Below are positions 1,786-53,630 of a DNA stretch of 64,000 nucleotides, in pieces. This stretch comes from Spirochaetia bacterium (GTDB lineage Bacteria > Spirochaetota > Spirochaetia > CADAEX01). A model generated the notes under the pieces. That model made no database searches. It was not told the origin of the DNA and worked only from the letters and a program-made list of their open reading frames with translations. The translations under genes and the position numbers were made by a program. Position 1 is the first letter of the stretch. Every line of letters starts with the position of its first letter. The stretch spans positions 128,001 to 192,000 of the forward strand of contig CAXXHA010000010.1 of the NCBI GenBank assembly GCA_963662265.2, in the 5' to 3' direction.

Positions 1786-3564
1786 TTAAAGTTCAACCTT
1801 TCCGCCGAGTTTCTGTAAAGTCAGGTGACCGGAAATAATTATCAGTACTATAAGAAGCATTACCCCGTAGGCATGCTGTATAAATTCCTGTGTTGTGTAT
1901 CTGAAAATTATTGAAGTCATCAGCGTTGTTTTTGGTGTTACAAGAAGTATAACAAGGTCAAGGACCCTCATTGTTGTAATAAATGTTAAAAGCATAGCTG
2001 AAAGTACCCCTGTTTTTGAAAGGGGAAAAATTATTTTTCGGAATCTTGTACCCCAGCCTATGTTATGCACAACTGCGACCTCTTCAAGAGACGGATCGAT
2101 CTGGTGCATAGCTGTAATACCTGCAGATGAAGAATACGGCAGATACTTGATTACACAGACCAGTACAAGGAGGGCAAAAGTACCGTAGAGACTGGGAATC
2201 GGCCCCCAGCTTCTTGCGAAAATTGTGAGATAAATACCACCGAAAGCAACCCCTGGAATAAGGTATGGTGTAAATGTGAGGTTTTCAATGAATTTTGCAA
2301 GAAACGATTTACGTCCTTTAACTACTGTATATCCTATAAGAATACCCAGTACACCGCTTATAATTGATGTAATTCCCGCAAGCGAGACAGAATTCTTTAT
2401 TGCAGACAAAATTGTCTTGTTCCTGAAAATACCAGGCTGACCTTCTGCAATATTCGGATCACTCTTTCCAATCCAGTAATGCAGTGTAAAATTATCAGGA
2501 GCAAGAGAGCCTTCATTTTTCAAGAAAGTCTGAAGCCCGAGAATAAAAAGAGGTCCGAAAATAAATATAATAATAAATGCGAAAATAAGTATTGTTAGCG
2601 GAATTCTCCATTTGCCGAGTGCTACAGGTTTTTTCCTGGAGCCCTTACCGCTAATTGTTACATATCTTTTCCTTGTCCCAAGAAGCAGCTGGTTCATAAA
2701 AACAACAAATGATGTTGCAATAATCAGGATAAGTGCAAGAACATATCCCTCACCGTAAAGCTGGTTTTCAAGAGAGGCATAAATTCTTGTAGAAAATGTG
2801 TAATACCTTATAGGAAGACCAAGGAAAGCCTGGGTTGCGAACTCTCCCAGCCCCTTGCTGAATGTAAGAACAAATGCAGCTCCCAATGCAGGAAGAACCA
2901 TGGGAAGAGTTATCCTGAAAAGGATCTCACTTTTAGAAGCCTTTAAAAGTTCTGCACTTTCTTCAAGTCTTGAGTCAACATTTGCAAGCGCGCCGCGCAG
3001 CATTATGAAAAAGTATGGAACATAGTGAACACCCAGAGCTATAACTATAGGGATATAACCGTAAATAATCCAATCAGGAGGATTCACTCCAAAAAGAATA
3101 TTCAACAGCCCCGGAGTACCGCCGTATTTTTCACTGTTGAAAACAGTAATCCAGGCCATTGCAACTGTCCAGGACGGCACAATGTAGGGAATAATCATCA
3201 CTGTGGAAAAGAAACCTTTACACGGGATATCTGTCCTTACAATCAGCCATGCAAAAAAGCAGCCGACAATCAGCGAAAAAGCAGTCATTCCGACAGATAT
3301 TGTCAGACTGTTCCACGCAGGTTCGTAGAAAATCGACTTTGCAAGATCGCCTTTAAGCGCCCTGAGCCAGTTAAACATTGTATATGCGCCCTCTTCAGCA
3401 CCGCGTACCATTCGGGGACCATTTTCATCAAAAACAAACGAAGCATTAACCATATAGAGAACAGGGCTAAGTACCAGGACAAACAGACAAACTGCTATTA
3501 TCCAGCCCCATACATTTTCAGGTTTCAGCCTCTTTATAGTATGCATTATTCTGCTGTTATTCAT
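1786..3564 (-). CDS. ABC transporter permease (FbpB-like, duplicated domain)
   Basis: About 12 TM segments, two EAA-like loops (LEESAELL, LEEVAVVH), in operon with ATPase and SBP. Confidence 0.9.
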   Translation of the reverse strand: MNNSRIMHTIKRLKPENVWGWIIAVCLFVLVLSPVLYMVNASFVFDENGPRMVRGAEEGAYTMFNWLRALKGDLAKSIFYEPAWNSLTISVGMTAFSLIVGCFFAWLIVRTDIPCKGFFSTVMIIPYIVPSWTVAMAWITVFNSEKYGGTPGLLNILFGVNPPDWIIYGYIPIVIALGVHYVPYFFIMLRGALANVDSRLEESAELLKASKSEILFRITLPMVLPALGAAFVLTFSKGLGEFATQAFLGLPIRYYTFSTRIYASLENQLYGEGYVLALILIIATSFVVFMNQLLLGTRKRYVTISGKGSRKKPVALGKWRIPLTILIFAFIIIFIFGPLFILGLQTFLKNEGSLAPDNFTLHYWIGKSDPNIAEGQPGIFRNKTILSAIKNSVSLAGITSIISGVLGILIGYTVVKGRKSFLAKFIENLTFTPYLIPGVAFGGIYLTIFARSWGPIPSLYGTFALLVLVCVIKYLPYSSSAGITAMHQIDPSLEEVAVVHNIGWGTRFRKIIFPLSKTGVLSAMLLTFITTMRVLDLVILLVTPKTTLMTSIIFRYTTQEFIQHAYGVMLLIVLIIISGHLTLQKLGGKVEL

Positions 3565-3588
3565 TTTGGGTAAATCCTCCGAAGCTGT

Positions 3589-4749
3589 TTATCTGGACAG
3601 CCAGAAATCTCTTACTTTGAGACCATCGTAGTATACAAAGTCAGGATCAATTGACCATGCAAGTGATGATACTTCTGAGAGAGATTTGTCAAGCTGTGGT
3701 TTTATATCGCTTCTTGATGCCCACTGTCCGGGAACAAAGAAAGGAGCCATACCTTTTCCGCCCTCTGAATCACCAAGCATATATCTGATAAGAAGTTTTG
3801 CAGCATTTGGATGAGGAGCTTCTGCTGTCATGAGAAGGAAGTTGCTCTTTACAATACCGAATTTCGGCTCAACATCAAAAGCAATACCGAGTTTTGTTCC
3901 TTTTTTGTTGTATCTGATTTTTGATGAAGCAACACAAATACCTAGAGGAGCATTTTCCTGTCCTGCCTGTCCTGCAGCTTTAGCTGTTTTTCCATCTGAA
4001 GTTGTAAGAACAATGTCATTCTTCACAATTCTGTCAAGCCATTCATATCCGGCATTTTCGATACCATCAGAAAGCTCAATTTTTTTACCGTATTTCTTTT
4101 CATAGGCTGCCGCCATTTCATCTGAATGTTTAACAACCATCTGGAGAAAGTTCATGTTTTCAGGTGACTGCATAGGATCTTTCATCTGGAATCTTCCTTT
4201 CCATTCAGGTTCAGTGAAATCCCAGAGGTTTGTAACAGGTGGCTGTGAATAACTGTCTGTGTTATAGAAAATTACCTTTGCTTCGATTGAATGCTGAAGT
4301 ATGTCTTTTCTGTAATTTTCAGGAATCACATCTTCTGTTTTTACTCCGTCAACAAGAGTTGCAGGGACATAGTTTTTTGCAAGTCCTTTTTTAAGAATAT
4401 CTTTTTCAATTGAAGTTCTGTCAGCAAGAAGAAGAACGTCTGCATTGTAAACACCTGCAGCCTGCTCTCTTTTAAGCTTTTCAATCTGCTGAACAGTTGG
4501 AATATCAACTGCTTCAACTTCAATACCCGGATACATTGTCTTAAACTCTTCAACAGCATCAAAAATTCTTGATGTGAGAGCATAAATTACAACCTTACCC
4601 TCTTCCTTTGCAGCTTCATAAATTGCATCCCAGTCTTCTTCAACAACTGCAGATACAGCTTCTTCTTTTACTGGTTCTTCCTTGGTTCCGCCGGCAAAAA
4701 TCATACACGGGAGAACAAGAATCAATAGAATCAGAACCGCTTTTTTCAT
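3589..4749 (-). CDS. ABC transporter substrate-binding protein (FbpA/AfuA-like)
   Basis: Signal peptide MKKAVLILL..FAGG, AAKEEGKVVIY, APHPNAAKLLI; GGAGG RBS before ATG 4749. Confidence 0.85.
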   Translation of the reverse strand: MKKAVLILLILVLPCMIFAGGTKEEPVKEEAVSAVVEEDWDAIYEAAKEEGKVVIYALTSRIFDAVEEFKTMYPGIEVEAVDIPTVQQIEKLKREQAAGVYNADVLLLADRTSIEKDILKKGLAKNYVPATLVDGVKTEDVIPENYRKDILQHSIEAKVIFYNTDSYSQPPVTNLWDFTEPEWKGRFQMKDPMQSPENMNFLQMVVKHSDEMAAAYEKKYGKKIELSDGIENAGYEWLDRIVKNDIVLTTSDGKTAKAAGQAGQENAPLGICVASSKIRYNKKGTKLGIAFDVEPKFGIVKSNFLLMTAEAPHPNAAKLLIRYMLGDSEGGKGMAPFFVPGQWASRSDIKPQLDKSLSEVSSLAWSIDPDFVYYDGLKVRDFWLSR

Positions 4750-34685: not shown

Positions 34686-34707
34686 TTATCACGCAATACA
34701 GACAATT
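34686..34707 (+). repeat. 22-bp direct repeat, copy 1 (downstream of the integrase gene)
   Basis: TTATCACGCAATACAGACAATT; 21/22 identical to 35619-35640. Confidence 0.85.
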
Positions 34708-34742
34708 TGGATTTTAAGACTTATCAGGAAATACACATAACT

Positions 34743-35543
34743 CTATAACGGGCTCTTCACCCTCTTTGATACAGGGTCTGCAAGGTTTATATAGATCATT
34801 GTTGTCTTGACCGATTTATGCCCCAGAAGATCCTTAACTGTCTTGATATCAATCCCGGCCTCTATCAGGTGCGTGGCGAAACAATGCCTGAGAGTATGGC
34901 AGGTTGCACTTTTCTGAATCAAACTCTTATTGAGAGCATTCTCGAATATTTTCTGGACCGTCCTTACAGAATATTTCTTCCCTGAAATTGTCCTGAAAAC
35001 ATAATCAGAAGCATTTCTCCCTGCAGTAAGCTGTCTTAAAGATTCTGAATACTTTTCCGAAAGAAGAGTAATCCTGTCCTTGTTCCCCTTGGAATCCCTT
35101 ATCTTAAGCGATAAGTCATTGAAATTAATATCCCTTATTTTTATTCTGCAGACCTCACTCACACGGAGACCGCTGCCGTAAAGAAGGGAGATAATAAGCT
35201 GATGCTTTTTGTTCTCAATATTTCCTAGAAGCTTAAGGACCTCCTCCCTTGAAAGAATATCGGGAAGCCTTTTCCTTGTTCTTACCCTGTCAAGCTTATA
35301 AGGACAGGGCTTGTCCAGTACAAGAGTATAAAACAGCTTTATCGCTGACCAGGCAAGCCTTCTCTGCTCACTCGAACTCTCTTCATTTTCAAGAAAAAGA
35401 GCAATCCTCCTTTCAGGATCAAAATCAGTTTTCCGGGAATATTCAAGAAAATGCTTCAGATGACCCGTATAAATCCTTACAGTATTTTTCGAATAATTCC
35501 GGTTCTTAAGCTCCCTTGTAAAATCTTCAAGATAATTTTTCAT
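34743..35543 (-). CDS. Tyrosine recombinase, IntI-like but lacking the IntI-specific insertion (putative integron integrase)
   Basis: RNYSKNT N-terminal SAM-like domain, RLPDILS, LLYGSGLRVSE, SKGNKDR, HTLRHCFATHL, LLGH, TTMIY, C-terminal KSPL. All catalytic residues R-K-H-R-H-Y present. ATG 35543 has a G-rich RBS. Confidence 0.9.
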   Translation of the reverse strand: MKNYLEDFTRELKNRNYSKNTVRIYTGHLKHFLEYSRKTDFDPERRIALFLENEESSSEQRRLAWSAIKLFYTLVLDKPCPYKLDRVRTRKRLPDILSREEVLKLLGNIENKKHQLIISLLYGSGLRVSEVCRIKIRDINFNDLSLKIRDSKGNKDRITLLSEKYSESLRQLTAGRNASDYVFRTISGKKYSVRTVQKIFENALNKSLIQKSATCHTLRHCFATHLIEAGIDIKTVKDLLGHKSVKTTMIYINLADPVSKRVKSPL

Positions 35544-35590: not shown

Positions 35591-35619
35591 TTGAATTATA
35601 CACCCGCAGACTTTAAAAT
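35591..35619 (+). promoter_or_regulatory. Pc-like sigma70 promoter facing the cassette array
   Basis: TTGAAT-17 bp-TAAAAT, 25 bp upstream of the attI core. Confidence 0.55.
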
Positions 35620-35650
35620 TATCATGCAATACAGACAATTATAGTTATCG
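35619..35650 (+). other. attI-like site (repeat copy 2 plus core G/TTATCG, crossover between 35644 and 35645)
   Basis: First GTT of the array with no upstream attC arm. GTTATCG..TGACAGGC is complementary to the end of cassette 1 (GCCTGTCA..CGATAAC). Confidence 0.75.
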
Positions 35651-35866
35651 TAAATGACAGGCCTTTGGAAATTTAGAAAGTCATTGATTCTTGACTTCTT
35701 TCTTCATGGCAAGGAACACAGCTGTATAAATTCAATTGTGAATTATGATGCTAATTATTGAAATATTAAGAATAGTTAAAATGCCGAGAATTAAATTTGA
35801 AGAAGCCATGAAGAAATTCTGACTTACATTGATTTGTAGATCTTGAAGCCTGTCACTCCCGATAAC
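35645..35866 (+). other. ORF-less cassette 1 body
   Basis: About 220 bp with no ORF of 60 aa or more; ends form a long imperfect inverted repeat including TTTCTTCATGGC/GCCATGAAGAAA. Confidence 0.7.
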
Positions 35867-36029
35867 AGAGAATACCCGGTTCAGGCATAAGTAGTAAAAA
35901 GTATAGGGCTTAACTGCCGTTCACCCAAAATGTCGGAGCTTTTCTTGTTGCGTGTAAAATCTGGTAGGTATATGATTATTTTAATACGTGGAGAATCCGA
36001 CATCTTCGGATATTCTCAGAACGTTAAGT
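35860..36029 (+). repeat. attC-like site 1 (long type, 170 bp)
   Basis: CGATAAC-A-GAGAATACCCG...CGGATATTCTC-AGAAC-GTTAAGT; closely similar to 37032-37202 and 45660-45827. Confidence 0.9.
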
Positions 36030-36098
36030 GCAATTCTTTGCTTAATATATTTTTTCCTCGCCATCCATGGCTCGGATTTAGAAAAGGAGTATTTCAAA

Positions 36099-36965
36099 AT
36101 GAAAAAAATTATTATTTATTGTTTAGCACTGTTTTTATTATTTTCATGTGCTAATAATGAATTTAATGTAGAACTTGGTATTGATGCAAACTTCATTGAG
36201 AATGATTTAAAAATTACAGGATCAACAAATCTTCCGGATGGTGCAATGATTTCATTAAATCTTAAACCACTATATGAAGAAGAAGTTTCTATTAAAGATG
36301 GAAAAATTGAACATACATTCTCTTTTAATGGAGATGCTATACCTGATGGAGATTATACACTAGAAGCAATATTTATTCCTACTCAAAACGAATCACCAAA
36401 ATTAAAAAATATGATTCTAATTGAAAATGAAAATGTATATGAAAAAGATGGAATAAAATATTATTATATCGGAAATAATTTTAATATAAACAAAGTAGTT
36501 AAAAATAAAGAGCTAAAAAATTTAATAAACAGAAAAGTTCCATATGAAAAATGGAATGATTGGGGAAATCCTGAAACTCTTGAACAAACTAACAATATTT
36601 TTTGGGCAGCATATCTCGAGAAAGCTGATATTTCTTTTATATCAAAAAAAGAGAATGATAAAATCATTTTTGCATGTAGAGGAAAAGAAAAACTAGAAAA
36701 ATATTTTACTGATCGTCAAAATAATATTGAAATTGGATTTTCTCTTTGGGATGGTTCGCATAAAAAACTTACAGAATTAATCAAACAAAGTATGAATGAC
36801 GCAAAAAGTTATGAACATGTTAAAACTGTTTACTGGGATAAAGGAGATCATTTAATAGTTAAAACAGATTTTAGGGGTGCAAATGTTTTTGGAGGTATCG
36901 TCTTAGATTCTGTTACTGCTAAGACATCTATTGATGGTGAGATCTTAGAAATAATTTCAGATTAA
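36099..36965 (+). CDS. Hypothetical lipoprotein (cassette 2)
   Basis: AAGGAG RBS; MKKIIIYCLALFLLFSC lipobox; C-terminal FRGANVFGG motif. Confidence 0.75.
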   Translation: MKKIIIYCLALFLLFSCANNEFNVELGIDANFIENDLKITGSTNLPDGAMISLNLKPLYEEEVSIKDGKIEHTFSFNGDAIPDGDYTLEAIFIPTQNESPKLKNMILIENENVYEKDGIKYYYIGNNFNINKVVKNKELKNLINRKVPYEKWNDWGNPETLEQTNNIFWAAYLEKADISFISKKENDKIIFACRGKEKLEKYFTDRQNNIEIGFSLWDGSHKKLTELIKQSMNDAKSYEHVKTVYWDKGDHLIVKTDFRGANVFGGIVLDSVTAKTSIDGEILEIISD

Positions 36966-37031
36966 TTTTTTACTGCCAGAAAGTACATCCCTGTACTTTC
37001 TGGAATTTATTAAAATTCAGCAAAGAACAGC

Positions 37032-37202
37032 ACTTAACAGAGAATACCACGGTTCAGGCTTAAGCAGTAGAAGCATGTAGCAAAACAGCCGTTCACCCAA
37101 AATGTCGGGACTTTTTATTGTTGCAGGTGGAATCTGTTGGGTATAAGATTAATTAAATATCTGGAGCATCCGACATCTTCGGGTATTCTCAGAACGTTAT
37201 GT
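37032..37202 (+). repeat. attC-like site 2 (long type, 171 bp)
   Basis: ACTTAAC-A-GAGAATACC...GGTATTCTC-AGAAC-GTTATGT. Confidence 0.9.
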
Positions 37203-37431
37203 ACAATGAGCCCGACAAGAGGAAGACGCCCGGACCTCCGGCCGACGGGCGAAGAGATAATATATATATGTTATATCGAAAGAAGGAGTAAAAATGAGAT
37301 TGAAGGCATTAATATTAGAGAACTTCCGAGGCTATTCTGGAGTAAATTTAATTAATTTTGAAAAAGACTGGAAATGGCAAGTCATTTTCCCCACATTTAG
37401 GAAATTAAAAATCCCCCACCTGCAGAAAAAA

Positions 37432-38172
37432 TTATACCCCCTTTTTCTCCTGAATTCTATATGAATCTCCCTCAAGGGAGAAAACATGCGCATGATGTAA
37501 AAGCCTATCAAGCATTGCTGTTGTCATGATTTCATCACCCATCATTTCAGACCACTGATCAAAACCTTTATTTGAAGTAATTATTACTGACGATCTTTCA
37601 TAGAGTTCGCTGATAAGATTAAAAAAAAGATTGGCCTCTTTTCTGTCGATAGGCGTATAGCCTATTTCATCAATAATTAGTAACGAAGATCTGAGAATCC
37701 TGTTTATTCTGAATGAACTTGATCTCATAGTTTCCATTGTTTTCAACAGTTTTATTAGTGAAGTTATCCTTTCAAAACAGACAGTGTATCCGGCTTCAAT
37801 TGCCTTGTACCCGAGAGCAATTGATAGATGTGTTTTCCCAAGGCCGGGAGGTCCAAAGAACATGATATTTTCAGATTTATCTATCCACCTGAAATCCTTG
37901 AGATTATTTAACTGTTCTTCAGTTATCCCTTTTATTCTTGAAAAATTGAATGTCTCAAGTTCCTTAATTACAGGAAAATGGGCACCTGTAAGATTTCTAT
38001 GAAGACGTCTTTCATTTCTGAAATGTACTTCTTCTGTAAGAAGGATGCTTAAAAAATCAAGATGAGATATTTTCTCCTTTGTTGCTTTTTCAAGTGCCTC
38101 ATCAAGATTAACAGATATTCCTTTAAGCTTTAGACTATCAAGTATTCCTGTACAGTAATCAAAACAGCTCAT
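37432..38172 (-). CDS. istB: IS21 helper ATPase
   Basis: GPPGLGKTHL, LLIIDEIGY, ITSN, AMLDRLLHH. Confidence 0.95.
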   Translation of the reverse strand: MSCFDYCTGILDSLKLKGISVNLDEALEKATKEKISHLDFLSILLTEEVHFRNERRLHRNLTGAHFPVIKELETFNFSRIKGITEEQLNNLKDFRWIDKSENIMFFGPPGLGKTHLSIALGYKAIEAGYTVCFERITSLIKLLKTMETMRSSSFRINRILRSSLLIIDEIGYTPIDRKEANLFFNLISELYERSSVIITSNKGFDQWSEMMGDEIMTTAMLDRLLHHAHVFSLEGDSYRIQEKKGV

Positions 38173-39731
38173 AAAGCACCTCCTAAAAGACTTACAAGTG
38201 AGGTGTAGTAACTTAAATCCCTTTTCTTTACTTCTATGTTTTTATTCTCATGTTTTACAGCTTTTATTCCTGTAAGAAGCTGTGGCAGAATATCCGGATA
38301 ATTTTCAGTTTCACAGCTTCTTACATAAAGATAAGACTCTTCAAAATTCCTTGCAGATAGTGTTCCGTTTTCAATGCATAAATCTGCAGTTTTTGCTATT
38401 AACTTATCATCAGGATTTGAGTTTATGAAAGCATAAAGCTCGCGCTGCTGATCTCTGTAATACCTGCTGTATTTTTTGTAATTCTGATCAACATATTGTT
38501 TCCATGAGTTACTGCTAAATCTGTTCTTTAATTTTTTGATAACTTCATCGGGCTTGGAATCATAATTCCTGAAATGATTATGTTTGGTTATTTTTTTCCC
38601 CTTTATCGGTGAGATTTTGTGCCTGGCAATCTCTTCTCCATCTATTTTGTCATAGATAAAAAGGTCTGTATCTGTTTGGTAAATCCAGACAGTTTTTTTT
38701 CTGAACCTGTTAGGGACAGAGTAAAATGAAGATGAAACACTTATCAATGATTTACTATTTACTTCCCTTGATTCTTTATTTATGATGCTTTCCCTTCTGA
38801 AAATAGACGGCTTTAATTTTTTAAAATGTGGAATCTCTTTAAGCAAAGCTTCTTGAGGAATTATTCCAGTTGCCTGGCATATTTTACCGTTAGCTCTTCT
38901 TGAAAGCCAATTATTTAATGCCTCCTGTATTTGATCAAAGGATGTGAAATGTCTTGCTGAAAAGAAACTGCTTTTGATGAATTTCACAAAGTTTTCGACT
39001 TTACCTTTGCTCTCAGGGTCTGCTTTTCTGCAGACATACATCTTAAACCCCTGCTCATCCTTGAAGGCTTTAAATTCTTTTGTATACTTAATATCTCCGC
39101 TGTTTTCTTTAACAACCATGACTTTGTCCTGATCAATCACGATTTCTTCAGGTACCCCTCCTATTATTTCAAAGGTATCAAGTAAATGATTTATCACATC
39201 TATGGATTTAAACGGCCTCTTCTGTACTGCTGCATACTTGAATCTGCTTACAGATAGAATGACTCCAAAGATATATACTTTCTCACCGGTTTCTATTTCA
39301 GTTTCTCCGAAATCAAGCTGTAGTTGTTTTCCATGTGGAAGTTCTTCAACCGGTGTATAGATTCTCTTGTATTCGTAATTATCTACTTCTCCTGTTTTCT
39401 TTAAGAAAATGAGATAATTTCTCAAAGTCCTTTCAGTGCCGGGAAGTTCTCCATATTTTTCTTCAAGAACATCATAGATTGATGAAGTGTATATTTTATT
39501 GTTATTTAAATTAAAAATATTCAGTATTTCATCTTTGAAAGGAGCAAAAATCTTTTCCTTTTCTACACTGTTTATCTGGTATTCAAGATACTCTGCTTCC
39601 GACATTTCAAAGTATTTTCTAACTGTTTTTCTGTCGATTTTTAATTCTCTGGATATTTTCCTTTTTGAATATCCTCTATTCTTGAAAACTCTTATTTTTT
39701 GGTACATATTCATAGTAATCATTTGAGTCAT
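38169..39731 (-). CDS. istA: IS21 transposase
   Basis: N-terminal HTH, QLDFG, GGVPEEIVIDQ, PESKGKVEN. Confidence 0.95.
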   Translation of the reverse strand: MTQMITMNMYQKIRVFKNRGYSKRKISRELKIDRKTVRKYFEMSEAEYLEYQINSVEKEKIFAPFKDEILNIFNLNNNKIYTSSIYDVLEEKYGELPGTERTLRNYLIFLKKTGEVDNYEYKRIYTPVEELPHGKQLQLDFGETEIETGEKVYIFGVILSVSRFKYAAVQKRPFKSIDVINHLLDTFEIIGGVPEEIVIDQDKVMVVKENSGDIKYTKEFKAFKDEQGFKMYVCRKADPESKGKVENFVKFIKSSFFSARHFTSFDQIQEALNNWLSRRANGKICQATGIIPQEALLKEIPHFKKLKPSIFRRESIINKESREVNSKSLISVSSSFYSVPNRFRKKTVWIYQTDTDLFIYDKIDGEEIARHKISPIKGKKITKHNHFRNYDSKPDEVIKKLKNRFSSNSWKQYVDQNYKKYSRYYRDQQRELYAFINSNPDDKLIAKTADLCIENGTLSARNFEESYLYVRSCETENYPDILPQLLTGIKAVKHENKNIEVKKRDLSYYTSLVSLLGGAL

Positions 39732-44582: not shown

Positions 44583-44677
44583 AAAATAGTTTCAGTAGTC
44601 TTGGCTATTTTTTTTAAAGTATAAATGAAGAATCCAGACCTAACTCCGTTGAACGGTCTGGATGTCGGGCTCAAAGC

Positions 44678-44759
44678 ACATAACAGCGAATATGCGGTTT
44701 CGCTTCGCTTTACCCAAACTGGCCTTTGGCCAGCTTCGCATATTCGCGGAACGTTATGA
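44678..44759 (+). repeat. attC-like site 3 (short type, 82 bp)
   Basis: ACATAAC-A-GCGAATATGCG...CGCATATTCGC-GGAAC-GTTATGA, perfect 11-bp stem. Confidence 0.9.
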
Positions 44760-44834
44760 ATAATTCCTGACCAAGAAGAGACCTTTATACTCGCCATCCA
44801 TGGCTCGTGAAGAAATAGAAAATCTTATATTGTA

Positions 44835-45164
44835 TTAAACACTTAGTATTTTATGATCTTCCAGAATATTACCATCCATTTCTAACAACTGCAAAAATCT
44901 AGAAGCTGGTCCTTGAGGTTTGTTTCTACCGGATTCCCAGGCTTCAACCGTTTTTACAGATACACCAAGTGCTTCTGCGAAAATAGTCTGTGATAAATTC
45001 AATGATAACCGGATTTGTTTTATTTTGGATGCATCATATTTTGGAATTGGAGAAATACTGACTTTCCTTCTTTTTACTGAAGGTAATTTACCTTTACTAT
45101 ATTCAAGAGATTCATTGAGTCCGGAGATAATTGAGTTATAATAATTTTTATCATCGTTTTTCAT
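44835..45164 (-). CDS. HigA-like HTH antitoxin
   Basis: IRLSLNLSQTIFAEALGVSVKTVEAWESGRNKP. Confidence 0.9.
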   Translation of the reverse strand: MKNDDKNYYNSIISGLNESLEYSKGKLPSVKRRKVSISPIPKYDASKIKQIRLSLNLSQTIFAEALGVSVKTVEAWESGRNKPQGPASRFLQLLEMDGNILEDHKILSV

Positions 45165-45514
45165 TTCTGCCCTCCGTTCGTACGTAAATTATTCTTAATC
45201 TGATCTATCAAAGACTTAATATTGTTTTTTTCACCTTTCGTAAGACTTTGCTTTTCACTTTTTCTAAAACAGGCAATCATATGAATCTGTTCAAATGATG
45301 CAAAATCAACATATAGTGTTCTTACGCCACCACTTTTACCTTTTCCTGGAACTGACCATCGAAGCTTTCGCAAGCCCCCTGTTCCTTGAATCATTTTTCC
45401 AGCTTCAGGATTCTCACAAAGCAATATCTCAAGATCTTTGAGATCATCATCTGTCAAATTGGCATCTGCCCACTGTTTTTCGAATGTTGGCATATACACA
45501 AATTCTCGTGTCAT
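45161..45514 (-). CDS. RelE/HigB-like toxin
   Basis: NPEAGKMIQGTGGLRKLRW, GKSGGVR; upstream of the antitoxin. Confidence 0.9.
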   Translation of the reverse strand: MTREFVYMPTFEKQWADANLTDDDLKDLEILLCENPEAGKMIQGTGGLRKLRWSVPGKGKSGGVRTLYVDFASFEQIHMIACFRKSEKQSLTKGEKNNIKSLIDQIKNNLRTNGGQK

Positions 45515-45520
45515 GATTAA

Positions 45521-45549
45521 TTATTACACCCTATTCAATAGGGTGTCAA
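45521..45549 (-). promoter_or_regulatory. TA promoter with palindromic operator
   Basis: Minus strand TTGACA-17-TAATAA; the spacer is the palindrome ACACCCTATT-g-AATAGGGTGT. Confidence 0.75.
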
Positions 45550-45659
45550 GAGTTGAAAATACAAATATTCTAACCTTTAGTTATACTTTTACCTTTTACT
45601 GTCTCAAAAGGACTTCCATGTCCTTTTGAGAATGAAATATCTTAATGGTCAGGAACTAT

Positions 45660-45827
45660 ACATAACAGAGAATACCCGGTTCAGGCATAAGCAGTAAAAG
45701 TTCGGGGCTTAACAGCCTTTCACCCAAAATGTCGGAACTTTCTTGTTGCAGGTGGAAACTGGAGGGTATATGATTAATCAAATATCTGAGGCATCCGACA
45801 TCTTCGGGTATTCTCAAAACGTTATGT
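45660..45827 (+). repeat. attC-like site 4 (long type, 168 bp)
   Basis: ACATAAC-A-GAGAATACCCG...CGGGTATTCTC-AAAAC-GTTATGT. Confidence 0.9.
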
Positions 45828-46578: not shown

Positions 46579-46593
46579 ACATAACAGCGAATA
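46579..46593 (+). repeat. attC-like site 5, left arm only (cut by IS3)
   Basis: ACATAACAGCGAATA identical to the start of site 3, immediately followed by the IS end. Confidence 0.8.
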
Positions 46594-46650
46594 TGGCATT
46601 CCCCCAAAACTGTAGACACTTGATATACTTAGAAACTAAGGAGTATTAAA

Positions 46651-46938
46651 GTGCCAAAGAGTCCCTACACAGAAGAATTTAAAGACGAAATATTAAAGCA
46701 AATAATGGAAGAAGAACACAGTGTTCTTGAAGTATCAAAAGCAACAGGAATAAGTGACGTTACTCTTTATAACTGGCTTAGAAAGGCCGGGTGGAAATCC
46801 GGGGAGTCTCGAGAAAAGAAAAAATTAACAGAAGCAGAAAAGGAAAACAGAGAATTAAAAGCAGAGATCAGAAAGCTTAAGATGGAGCGTGATATCTTAA
46901 AAAAGGCCGCAGCGTACTTTGCGAAGGAGTCCCAGTAA
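46651..46938 (+). CDS. IS3 OrfA
   Basis: YTEEFK HTH, ERDILKKAAAYF; A6G slippery site at 46899-46905. Confidence 0.92.
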   Translation: MPKSPYTEEFKDEILKQIMEEEHSVLEVSKATGISDVTLYNWLRKAGWKSGESREKKKLTEAEKENRELKAEIRKLKMERDILKKAAAYFAKESQ

Positions 46939-47795
46939 AGTACGCTTTTATTCGGGACAACAGAAAAGCGTTTCCAATTCGCCCTATGTGCAGGATATTA
47001 AAAGTTAATCCATCAGGATTTTATCGGTGGTTAAAAACACCAGAATCTCCTAGAACAATAGAAAATAAAAAAGTGACAGAACTAATCCGTTTTTACTGGG
47101 AAGAAAGCGGTCAAGTATATGGAAGTCCAAATATACATGAGGATCTAAAAGAAGCAGGTTATAGCTACGGTGTTAATCGGGTTGCTCGTTTGATGAGAGT
47201 AGCTGGAATAAAAGGTGCTTACAGACGGAAACGGCATCATGTACCTTGGGTTCCTGGAGAAATTTACCAGAAGAATACTTTGAATAGAGAATTTTCTGTT
47301 GCTGAGCCAAATCAAGCTTGGTGTACTGATATAACATATATCCGAACTTATGAAGGCTGGTTATATCTGGCAGTAGTAATTGATCTATTTAACAGAGGAG
47401 TTGTTGGCTGGTCGATGAAGAATCATCAGAAAGCAATTATTGTTATGGATGCTTTGTTTATGGCAGTAAAAAGAAGAAGACCTACAAAGTCTGTTCTTAT
47501 CCATTCTGATCAAGGGTGTCAGTTTACAAGTAAGGATTGGGAGGATTTTTGTGAGGCCCACTCTTTGGAAATTAGCATGAGTAGAAGAGGTAATTGTTGG
47601 GATAATTCTGTAGTTGAATCATTCTTTTCAAATCTTAAAAGAGAAAGAATCAGGAATAAAATTTATAAAACCAGAGAGGAGGCAAGAAAAGATATTTTTA
47701 ATTATATTGAAATGTTTTACAATACAAAAAGACGGCATGGTCATTTAGGAAAGCGAAGCCCTGCTGATTTTGAAGATAAGTTTTCATCAGATTAA
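46935..47795 (+). CDS. IS3 OrfB (DDE integrase core; expressed as OrfAB by -1 frameshift)
   Basis: WCTDITYI, HSDQGCQF, GNCWDNSVVESFF; the 5' coordinate is approximate. Confidence 0.92.
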   Translation, partial: VKYAFIRDNRKAFPIRPMCRILKVNPSGFYRWLKTPESPRTIENKKVTELIRFYWEESGQVYGSPNIHEDLKEAGYSYGVNRVARLMRVAGIKGAYRRKRHHVPWVPGEIYQKNTLNREFSVAEPNQAWCTDITYIRTYEGWLYLAVVIDLFNRGVVGWSMKNHQKAIIVMDALFMAVKRRRPTKSVLIHSDQGCQFTSKDWEDFCEAHSLEISMSRRGNCWDNSVVESFFSNLKRERIRNKIYKTREEARKDIFNYIEMFYNTKRRHGHLGKRSPADFEDKFSSD

Positions 47796-47822
47796 AGTGT
47801 CTACAGAATCAGGGGAATGCCA

Positions 47823-47984
47823 GTTGAAAACTTTAGTGCTGTCGATAGGACATACGATGAAGTAATTAAAAAAGGGGCAATATCAATTCTTAAGCCAACA
47901 ACAGAACCTTGGGGACAAAGAACGTGTTATGTGGCAGATCCTGAAGGAAACTTAATTGAAATTGGATCATTTCAGAAAGATTGA
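47823..47984 (+). pseudogene. 3' remnant of a VOC/glyoxalase gene
   Basis: VENFSAVDRTYDEVIKKGA..PTTEPWGQRTCYVADPEGNLIEIG*; starts exactly at the IS3 end. Confidence 0.85.
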
Positions 47985-49082: not shown

Positions 49083-49166
49083 CTATAACAGCGCATGTGC
49101 GGTGCTGCATTCGGCTTTACGCAAATTGGCCTTTGACCAACATCGCATATTCGCAATACGTTGTAC
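49083..49166 (+). repeat. attC-like site 7 (short type)
   Basis: CTATAAC-A-GCGCATGTGCG...CGCATATTCGC-AATAC-GTTGTAC. Confidence 0.8.
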
Positions 49167-51665: not shown

Positions 51666-51748
51666 CAAGAACAGTGAATATGTGGTTCAGCATTCAGCAT
51701 CTCCCAAAATGCCGTTGACCAACATCGCATATTTACAAAACATTATAG
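51666..51748 (+). repeat. attC-like site 10, degenerate (GTT changed to ATT)
   Basis: CAAGAAC-A-GTGAATATGTG...CGCATATTTAC-AAAAC-ATTATAG. Confidence 0.7.
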
Positions 51749-52361: not shown

Positions 52362-52883
52362 ATGAAACATATAGAAATAAAAGAAATTACTGAAATAGAC
52401 ATCCCTGAAATTGTAGACATTTGGTATGAAGTTTCTCTTCAAGCTCATGGATTTATTTCCAGCGAATATTGGAGAGCGAACAAAGATCAAATGAGTAATA
52501 AATACATACCAATGTCTGAAACATTTCAAGCAACAGATGGTGAAAATATATTAGGATTTATCTCATTATTAGATGATTATCTTGCTGCAATTTTTGTAAA
52601 ATCTGAATTCCAGGGAAGAGGAATTGGATCTTTATTATTAAACCATGCAATGAGTCTTCGCAATAATCTGCAATTAAAAGTATTCTGCAAAAATGCAAAG
52701 AGTATAGAATACTATAAATCAAAAGGTTTTTCTGTAATTTCAGAATCAAAAGATAATGAGACAGGAGAAAATGAGCTTGTCATGAAGTGGCATAAAAAAA
52801 AACTAGACGTAACAAGAAATATGCACAGCCCTACAGGCTTGGCCTTCGCAAATGCAGCGTTGCTTCTCTTTGCATATTTCTGA
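52362..52883 (+). CDS. GNAT acetyltransferase (YiaC-like); ORF reads through attC 12
   Basis: AHGFI, FQGRGIGSLLL; the original stop was probably near 52804 and lost by A-run slippage. Confidence 0.8.
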   Translation: MKHIEIKEITEIDIPEIVDIWYEVSLQAHGFISSEYWRANKDQMSNKYIPMSETFQATDGENILGFISLLDDYLAAIFVKSEFQGRGIGSLLLNHAMSLRNNLQLKVFCKNAKSIEYYKSKGFSVISESKDNETGENELVMKWHKKKLDVTRNMHSPTGLAFANAALLLFAYF

Positions 52884-52893
52884 AACGTTTGGC
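52807..52893 (+). repeat. attC-like site 12 (short type)
   Basis: ACGTAAC-A-AGAAATATGCA...TGCATATTTCT-GAAAC-GTTTGGC, perfect 11-bp stem. Confidence 0.8.
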
Positions 52894-53014
52894 GCAATTT
52901 GTCCCCCAAGAAAAACATTGCCCGGACATCCAGCCAACAGACTAAAATAACACTTCATGATGTGGTAATTAAATTAGCTGGTGAAAAAAACCATTTTTTA
53001 TGAGAAAATAGTTT

Positions 53015-53521: not shown

Positions 53522-53630
53522 GCAACTAGGGTGCTCGATAAACTTAATGTTTTTATAAAGAAGTTTGTTGATCCAGAGATTTAGAATCCAGACCGAACTC
53601 TGTTTAATATTCTGAATGTTGAACCAAAGC

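Follow-up and report, generated by a model that had tools for sequence, protein, structure and literature searches.

A candidate outward promoter in the apical loop of long cassette recombination sites of a Spirochaetia genome

Can a cassette recombination site carry a promoter for the cassette that follows it? By the usual description, integron cassettes lack promoters of their own and are expressed less the farther they lie from the array promoter Pc. We analysed a stretch of 64,000 nt (referred to as the window) from a Spirochaetia bacterium (GenBank assembly GCA_963662265.2, contig CAXXHA010000010.1, positions 128,001 to 192,000 of the forward strand), in which a tyrosine recombinase gene adjoins a cluster of cassette sites. 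Imperfect inverted repeats separate the genes of this array; they start with ...TAAC-A followed by a 10-nt L box and end with an L box followed by nGAAC-GTTAT. Most of the repeats have 77-82 nt, while three long ones have 163-166 nt and a mean identity of 85%. A first-pass annotation had described the three as attC sites longer than typical (which the comparison with the other repeats bears out), each containing a conserved sigma70 promoter aimed at the next cassette. Our best reading, to which we would give a probability of roughly 45%, is that the loop at the tip of these long sites may act as an outward sigma70-type promoter module; it was reached by comparing sequences.

The long sites share one architecture, a three-way junction with an outer stem formed by the R and L boxes, a first arm, and a second arm in which a 7-bp inner stem (ATGTCGG/CCGACAT) closes a 60-nt loop. 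The inverted core characteristic of attC sites is present in all three, with ends ATAAC...GTTAxG. Site A (35862-36028, plus strand) is made up of R'' ATAAC, L'' GAGAATACC, the first arm (35878-35925), the inner stem (35930-35936/35997-36003), L' GGATATTCTC and R' GTTAAG. It ends the first cassette of the array (35650-36028), which consists of ∼210 nt of AT-rich DNA plus the site itself and has no open reading frame (ORF) of at least 70 aa in 35604-35929. Site B (37034-37201, plus strand; inner stem 37102-37108/37170-37176) ends a cassette whose 288-aa ORF has no Pfam family (36099-36965); a terminator-like hairpin lies upstream of it at 36976-37003. Site C (45662-45826, plus strand; inner stem 45729-45735/45795-45801) ends a reverse-oriented RelE/HTH toxin-antitoxin cassette (44753-45823).

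Each loop holds two hexamers on the plus strand, 17 nt apart. In site A these are a putative -35 element TTGCGT (35948-35953) and a putative -10 element TATGAT (35971-35976); in site B, TTGCAG (37121-37126) and TAAGAT (37144-37149); in site C, TTGCAG (45746-45751) and TATGAT (45769-45774). The hexamers, the 17-nt spacers and the inner stems were all found where the first-pass annotation had placed them.

To see how much of this is shared beyond the window, we scanned a genome collection with the inner-stem pattern. Four exact matches were located in one Spirochaetia metagenome-assembled genome, OY764868.1 (loci L002, L003, L006 and L007), and eight further diverged copies were found in the flanks of those loci; all 12 extra copies thus come from one related genome. 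Three other matches, one in Bradyrhizobium (L001) and two in Saprospiraceae (L004 and L005), fit only the typed pattern, with no match in the rest of the site, and were set aside as chance. With the three window sites, 15 genomic copies were available. They fall into three subtypes that differ in L boxes and inner stems: T1 with seven copies (including the three of the window), T2 with six and T3 with two; the T2 and T3 copies were found solely through their location in the flanks of T1 matches. A distant blastn search of a plasmid collection with site C gave no match.

The stems of the sites have been kept by structure. In the alignment used for covariation (A2, 13 of the 15 copies), 98.6% of the cells in the L-box helix are paired, with two-sided changes at 7 of its 11 pairs; in the inner stem 97.8% are paired, with two-sided changes at 3 of the 7 pairs. 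The inner stem occurs in the versions ATGTCGG/CCGACAT, ATGCCAG/CTGGCAT and TTGCCAGA/TCTGGCAA. The observed covariation score was reached by none of 500 shuffles, and slid controls collapsed. The L''/L' pairing is therefore conserved as structure and not as sequence, as is expected of attC sites. The base of the first arm covaries as well (GGT/ACC to GGC/GCC in RNAalifold); a helix proposed for the apex of that arm was dropped, with only 62.7% of its cells paired.

The ends of the long sites coincide with the ends of exchangeable DNA. The toxin-antitoxin cassette and its site C (44752-45825) share 95% identity with L006:1032-2101; the homology ends at GTT, and a different cassette follows in each genome. 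A ∼435-bp ORF-less cassette bearing the T2 site starts with the same GTTTTCGG behind T1, T2 and T3 sites. The R''/R' and L''/L' layout of the long sites equals that of the short ones. As far as sequence can show, the long sites appear to be real cassette boundaries and recombination sites.

Two of these cassettes have features of their own. In the related genome, IS110-family transposase genes flank the shared toxin-antitoxin cassette (L006:1-861 and 3469-4080, both on the minus strand), with the left junction exactly at the cassette GTT. The upstream ORF had been considered as a recombinase and was rejected once recognized as an IS110-family transposase; the left boundary there is thus an IS junction, not attI or attC. 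The ∼435-bp ORF-less cassette occurs in tandem (L007:130-1000 and 2985-3860; L003:2100-2535), its T2 site being present six times, five of them with the full body within the loci. On folding, its body forms a single long hairpin (z -3.95), with a stability reached by 0 of 200 shuffles.

Comparison with the short sites indicates how the long form is built. The 77-nt site at 44679-44755 (plus strand) has the same R/L-box layout and an apical hairpin CTGGCC-TTT-GGCCAG; further short sites lie at 49084-49162, 51667-51744 and 52808-52889. A crude attC finder gave mostly noise, and seven of its calls were retained after cross-checking against other repeat evidence. The apical hairpin of the short sites, with its 3-nt loop, occupies the position taken in the long sites by the inner stem and the 60-nt loop; a long site is therefore a short one whose first arm is enlarged and whose tip has received a 60-nt payload.

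What, then, is the payload? No conserved pairing was detected within the 60-nt loop: folds of the single-stranded DNA gave z from -0.8 to -2.2, the RNA fold gave z -1.2, and RNAalifold returned only weak pairs changing on one side, none of them covarying. The earlier description of a motif in a loop enclosed by an inner stem is accurate in this respect, with a stem that covaries and a loop that is unpaired. As the loop has no conserved structure, conservation of its sequence needs another reason.

Such conservation is present. The spacer measures 17 nt in all 15 copies. In the -10 hexamer, positions 1, 2, 5 and 6 are invariant (15/15) and variation is confined to positions 3 and 4; in the -35 hexamer, TT and C4 are invariant (15/15) and G3 is retained in 13 copies. 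Between subtypes, identity reaches 0.79 in the -35 and 0.84 in the -10 element, against 0.42 in the spacer, 0.55 in the 5' arm and 0.57 over the loop as a whole. Conservation of the hexamers in a larger alignment had been named beforehand as the test on which the promoter proposal could fall, and it was found across the 15 copies; the claim that spacer bases vary while spacing is kept holds there too. Among 34 placements of a 6-17-6 mask the claimed one ranks 2nd. Of the 12 hexamer columns 5 vary, compared with 14 of the 17 spacer columns (p 0.046) and 39 of the 50 remaining loop columns (Fisher p 0.029, uncorrected for relatedness). In sigma70 promoters generally, conservation is lowest at positions 3-4 of the -10 and positions 5-6 of the -35 element, and these are the positions that vary in the loop. 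Compensatory substitutions altered the stems during the same period, so that the blocks of the loop were held while neighbouring sequence moved.

A considerable number of observations weigh against a promoter, and the first group concerns the hexamers as such. We compared them with the consensus TTGACA/TATAAT, using a scanner with a threshold of at least 4/6 per hexamer. The loops of sites A, B and C match 8, 7 and 8 of 12 positions, with only 3/6 in the -35 element and without a TG extension, and the scanner lists none of the three. It finds 48 sites in 14 kb, against 63 in shuffles. For a 17-nt spacer, the plus strand of the array has 0.24 matches of 8/12 or better per 60 nt, and adding TTG to the same criterion leaves 14 sites in 22.4 kb, sites A and C among them. 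Taken alone, the hexamers are not more than chance in AT-rich DNA. A near-consensus promoter-like site does exist elsewhere, in the toxin-antitoxin operon (45549-45520, minus strand; TTGACA-18-AATAAT with TG, 11/12). The motif is indeed in all three window sites, but these are paralogous repeats, 85% identical, and not independent observations, so that the threefold occurrence carries little weight.

The second group concerns the alignment and the neighbouring genes. The sample represents three lineages from two related genomes. Sites are homogenized within a genome: the copies L006:1936-2099 and L007:1936-2099 are 99.4% identical, while the orthologous site C (45661-45823) is only 89% identical to its L006 copy, the cassette body being 96% identical. 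Because of this homogenization the copies are not independent, and the statistics given above overstate their independence. Within T1 alone there is no contrast (4 of 12 variable columns in the hexamers versus 26 of 50 in the rest), the T2 copies are near-identical (3 of 62 loop columns variable), and the -35 G is lost in two of the 15 copies (TTACAG, L002:3586; TTTCAG, L007:2895). The motif always points toward the downstream cassette, and a plus-strand ORF lies 70-140 nt away in 8 of the 15 cases; five sites, on the other hand, have an ORF-less cassette in front of them, one is directed at a reverse-strand ORF and one runs off its locus. The phrase ‘aimed at the next cassette’ thus describes the orientation correctly, but not always a gene to be expressed. 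Likewise, of a ‘conserved sigma70 promoter’ the conservation of hexamers and spacing stands in the larger alignment, whereas the match to the consensus is weak and commonplace by chance.

Many of these observations could be expected of a neutral passenger, that is, of one insertion into a short site that duplication of cassettes and gene conversion then multiplied; the hexamers would be chance look-alikes kept by shared ancestry. The weak consensus match not listed by the scanner, the high chance density of such matches, the two related genomes sampled with strong homogenization within them, the near identity of T2 copies, the lack of special hexamer conservation in T1 and the two lost -35 Gs all fit this explanation. 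It accounts less well for the comparison between subtypes, where the 5' arm and the spacer diverged while the hexamers were held and the spacing stayed invariant; the compensatory changes in the stems over the same span indicate that there was time enough for a neutral loop to drift. We regard a neutral passenger as somewhat unlikely.

Conservation does not stop at the hexamers. Identity between subtypes is 0.68 in the T-rich tract before the -35 element and 0.48 after the -10 element, where the first ∼8 nt are conserved; this too speaks against a promoter. Conserved blocks of this extent might instead be protein-binding sites for recombination or its control (accessory or arm-type sites of the recombinase, or sites of a host factor) or sequence that tunes folding. 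The same loop is found in cassettes with unrelated genes or none, and with an atypical recombinase lacking the IntI insertion and atypical sites (a 4-5-nt bulge and no canonical extrahelical bases) extra recognition elements are conceivable. Short sites without the loop still bound cassettes, however, so the loop is not required for the site family; inspection of the alignment revealed no repeat symmetry between the blocks, and the IHF-type consensus does not fit. This explanation appears quite unlikely to us.

A structured RNA or a short peptide encoded by the loop or by the whole site was considered as well. The ATG of the inner stem opens short frames (for example 35930-36154, 74 aa), and ORF-less cassettes are common beside long sites. 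But the frames differ among copies owing to T-run indels, those of sites B and C being closed by a stop after 14 codons, and the translated site (47-aa frame of L007), compared with a set of 5.8 billion proteins, produced no candidate and no protein sharing words with it. On the RNA side, no Rfam family reached its gathering score in the whole window, and at E up to 10 the interval 35600-37320 gave only chance snoRNA and miRNA matches; as said, the loop has no covarying pairing and its RNA fold is unremarkable. Either product seems highly improbable.

The TTGCA of the loop also prompted a check for a sigma54 promoter. The sigma54 consensus is TGGCAC-N5-TTGC; by manual count, the GG of the stem and the GC lie 13-14 nt apart, not 11, and the candidate was rejected. 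The distance varies with T-run indels; it was counted in sites B and C, in one T2 copy and in the T1 copies of L006 and L007, which are identical there.

Returning to the promoter module, we can outline how it would work. In duplex DNA the payload would present, in this order, a T-rich tract, the -35 element TTGC(A/G)(G/T), 17 nt and the -10 element TAT(G/C)AT, together a weak-to-moderate sigma70-type promoter. RNA polymerase would be expected to bind there and to start transcription toward the next cassette ∼7 nt past the -10 element, still within the loop (at ∼35983, ∼37156 and ∼45781 in sites A, B and C). The transcript would include only the 3' half of the site, would be unable to re-form the site hairpin and would run into the downstream cassette, whose expression it would thereby affect. 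Since a site belongs to the cassette upstream of it, the promoter would travel with that cassette; in the excised circle it would face the cassette's own gene. Transcriptional read-through from upstream may be poor at sites B and C on account of the terminator-like hairpin before B and the reverse-oriented cassette before C.

In six cases the first feature that such a transcript would meet, in its 5' leader, is a GC-rich hairpin. It lies 10-15 nt past the crossover, at the start of cassettes with unrelated genes. The window copy after site B (37210-37262, plus strand) has the stem CGCCCG/CGGGCG (37227-37251) and the loop ACCTCC, which is anti-Shine-Dalgarno-like; five copies follow long sites of the related genome (L002:825-885, L002:2105-2165, L003:2540-2600, L007:1000-1065 and L007:3855-3915), and a degenerate one follows a short site of the window (52887-52950). 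The loop is ACCTCC in 6 of the 7 aligned copies and ACATCC in the degenerate one. In the window copy the predicted fold pairs ACCTCC with the GGAG of the downstream ribosome-binding site, at z -0.5, which is no better than shuffles. The element had no Rfam match and no covariation support. A pseudoknot with an upstream GAGG was rejected as well: the GAGG is not conserved and does not covary.

Does the array deserve the name of an integron? The array is chromosomal; other chromosomal genes precede it up to ∼34.7 kb (citrate lyase, oxaloacetate decarboxylase, a tricarboxylate transporter and Lnt among them). At its head lies the gene of a 266-aa IntI/Xer-like tyrosine recombinase (34743-35543, minus strand; Pfam Phage_integrase, 4.9e-40), divergent from the cassettes. 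From ∼35.6 kb on, mostly plus-strand small genes follow, and G+C falls from ∼0.40 to 0.29-0.34. A candidate Pc-like array promoter, TTGAAT-17-TAAAAT (35591-35619, plus strand), points into the array; it was picked solely by its scanner match to the consensus (9/12).

The recombinase scores 204.9 bits against the integron integrase model TIGR02249, below the cut-off of 265 and in two stretches; over its core, the integron-integrase model and XerA score equally well. In the alignment with the IntI4 structure 2a3v, query residues 203-214 replace chain residues 189-245 (12 versus 57 residues), while the C terminus ...KSPL corresponds to the SPL that closes the aligned IntI4 stretch. Neither the TIGR02249 profile nor the 2a3v alignment thus reveals the IntI-specific insertion near patch III in the 266-aa protein. 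Among the 120 matches listed, most homologues have ∼255-280 aa, full-length ones typically 265-266 aa; those listed with name and organism are mostly from Spirochaetota (one is labelled Actinobacteria) and are annotated as XerD or generic tyrosine recombinase. In the excerpts of Cury et al. that we used, the IntI-specific domain of ∼35 residues near patch III serves to define IntI, and recombinases without it beside attC sites are judged not to be IntI (PMC4889954).

The sites also depart from the classical pattern. In canonical attC sites, extrahelical bases occur close to L'', and the central spacer that separates the R from the L boxes is unpaired (PMC5027507). In bottom-strand folds of our long and short sites, canonical extrahelical bases were not found in the L stem, which is uninterrupted; a single 4-5-nt bulge sits on the R'-L' arm, opposite 0-1 nt. 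This bulge (nGAAC between L' and R' on the top strand) is common to 44679-44755, 52808-52889 and the three long sites, and an extra A on the L'' side is present in only two of the seven T1 copies. The array appears to work like an integron, but the IntI insertion and the canonical extrahelical bases are absent; with such a recombinase and such sites, the label of a canonical integron is not supported. The name attC used at first is accordingly right in pointing to what appear to be working cassette recombination sites, and too narrow in what it implies about recombinase and site.

The recombinase gene is bracketed by 22-nt direct repeats (TTATCAYGCAATACAGACAATT) at 34686-34707, 34721-34742 and 35619-35640, the middle copy being 77% identical; they may be binding sites or part of a mobile recombinase module. 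GTTATCG, directly after the right-hand repeat, is a possible attI crossover.

Several other elements were noted in the array. A second shared hairpin, CTCGCCATCCATGGCTCG, stands at the start of two cassettes (36057-36074 and 44790-44807); as one of its hosts is the reverse-oriented toxin-antitoxin cassette, it is positioned by the boundary and not by the gene. A CCAGACC...GGTCTGG hairpin with a conserved loop, not followed by a T-run, lies just upstream of several short and long sites (window 44634-44661 and ∼53585-53620; L002:1895-1920 and 3455-3480; L007:1890-1915). Between 37295 and 41569, an OLD-family AAA_15/TOPRIM nuclease gene is interrupted by an IS21-family element (IstA/IstB; 37432-39731, minus strand). 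An Eco57I-like methylase and a BsuBI/PstI-type endonuclease are encoded between the same two sites, and the interval is either one large defence cassette or a fusion of several. An IS3-family element (46651-47795) is inside or beside an attC-like site (46580-47830), with the half-site ATAACAGCGAATATGGCATTCCCC on the left and GGGGAATGCC on the right.

How new would a promoter of this kind be? The concept is a variant of promoter-bearing cassettes already described, and the comparisons that follow rest on excerpts of the sources cited. In Vibrionaceae superintegrons, gene-less cassettes carry sense promoters, one start having been mapped inside an attC (cassette F2; PMC11014356), and in oral Treponema the sigma70-like promoters of ORF-less cassettes are active in E. 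coli (PMC6557892). The likeness lies in a promoter mobile with the cassette and able to drive cassettes far from Pc, an activity that is predicted here, and in the ORF-less cassettes to which site A and the T2 sites belong. In those cases, however, promoters are individual features of cassette bodies, while here the candidate is a conserved module within the site's own apical loop, shared by three subtypes and present on gene-bearing cassettes too.

Cassette-borne promoters in 5' leaders (cmlA, qacE/qacI and toxin-antitoxin cassettes; PMC8876359) likewise make expression independent of the distance from Pc, and the toxin-antitoxin cassette of the window has its own promoter-like site at 45549-45520. 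Such promoters lie upstream of their own gene, whereas the motif of the long sites lies downstream of the gene of its cassette and faces the neighbour. Elements invading attC sites have outward promoters as well, the Pout of group IIC-attC introns (PMC8876359) and of IS1999 (PMC3518468); these are similar in being placed at attC and re-starting transcription of downstream cassettes, which is again predicted here; they belong to autonomous elements of 1-2 kb, unlike a 60-nt loop without mobility genes or terminal repeats beyond a 7-bp stem. The paper on the veb1 attC has no attC-internal promoter (PMC3518468). Sedentary chromosomal integrons have species-specific long attC sites, such as the 101-128-bp repeats of Vibrio cholerae (PMC11014356, PMC8876359). 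Homogeneous, long sites, homogenized within the genome and set in a large chromosomal array, are common to both; the sites described here differ in having 163-166 nt, a branched fold, an unpaired 60-nt loop, another bulge geometry and a recombinase without the IntI insertion. Our literature searches, supplementary files aside, found no paper on a family of sites that share a conserved promoter module in their terminal loop, which is not proof of absence.

A broader proposal, which we consider unlikely as a whole, would be that Spirochaetia outside Treponema possess an integron-like system with a 266-aa Xer/IntI-like recombinase devoid of the IntI-specific domain and with sites of different bulge geometry, whose apical loop would be a plug-in slot with an outward promoter as one widespread payload. 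Promoter and site would then form a single mobile module that re-wires expression whenever a cassette moves. If confirmed, a working array whose adjacent recombinase has no IntI-specific domain and whose sites lack canonical extrahelical bases would widen the definition of integron-like systems. If the promoter reading is true, ORF-less cassettes with the payload would be pure ‘promoter cassettes’, and the variable tip of hairpin sites could host functional cargo in nature. A site-borne promoter would also offer a compact means of maintaining the expression of distal cassettes, and promoter strength would be shuffled together with the genes.

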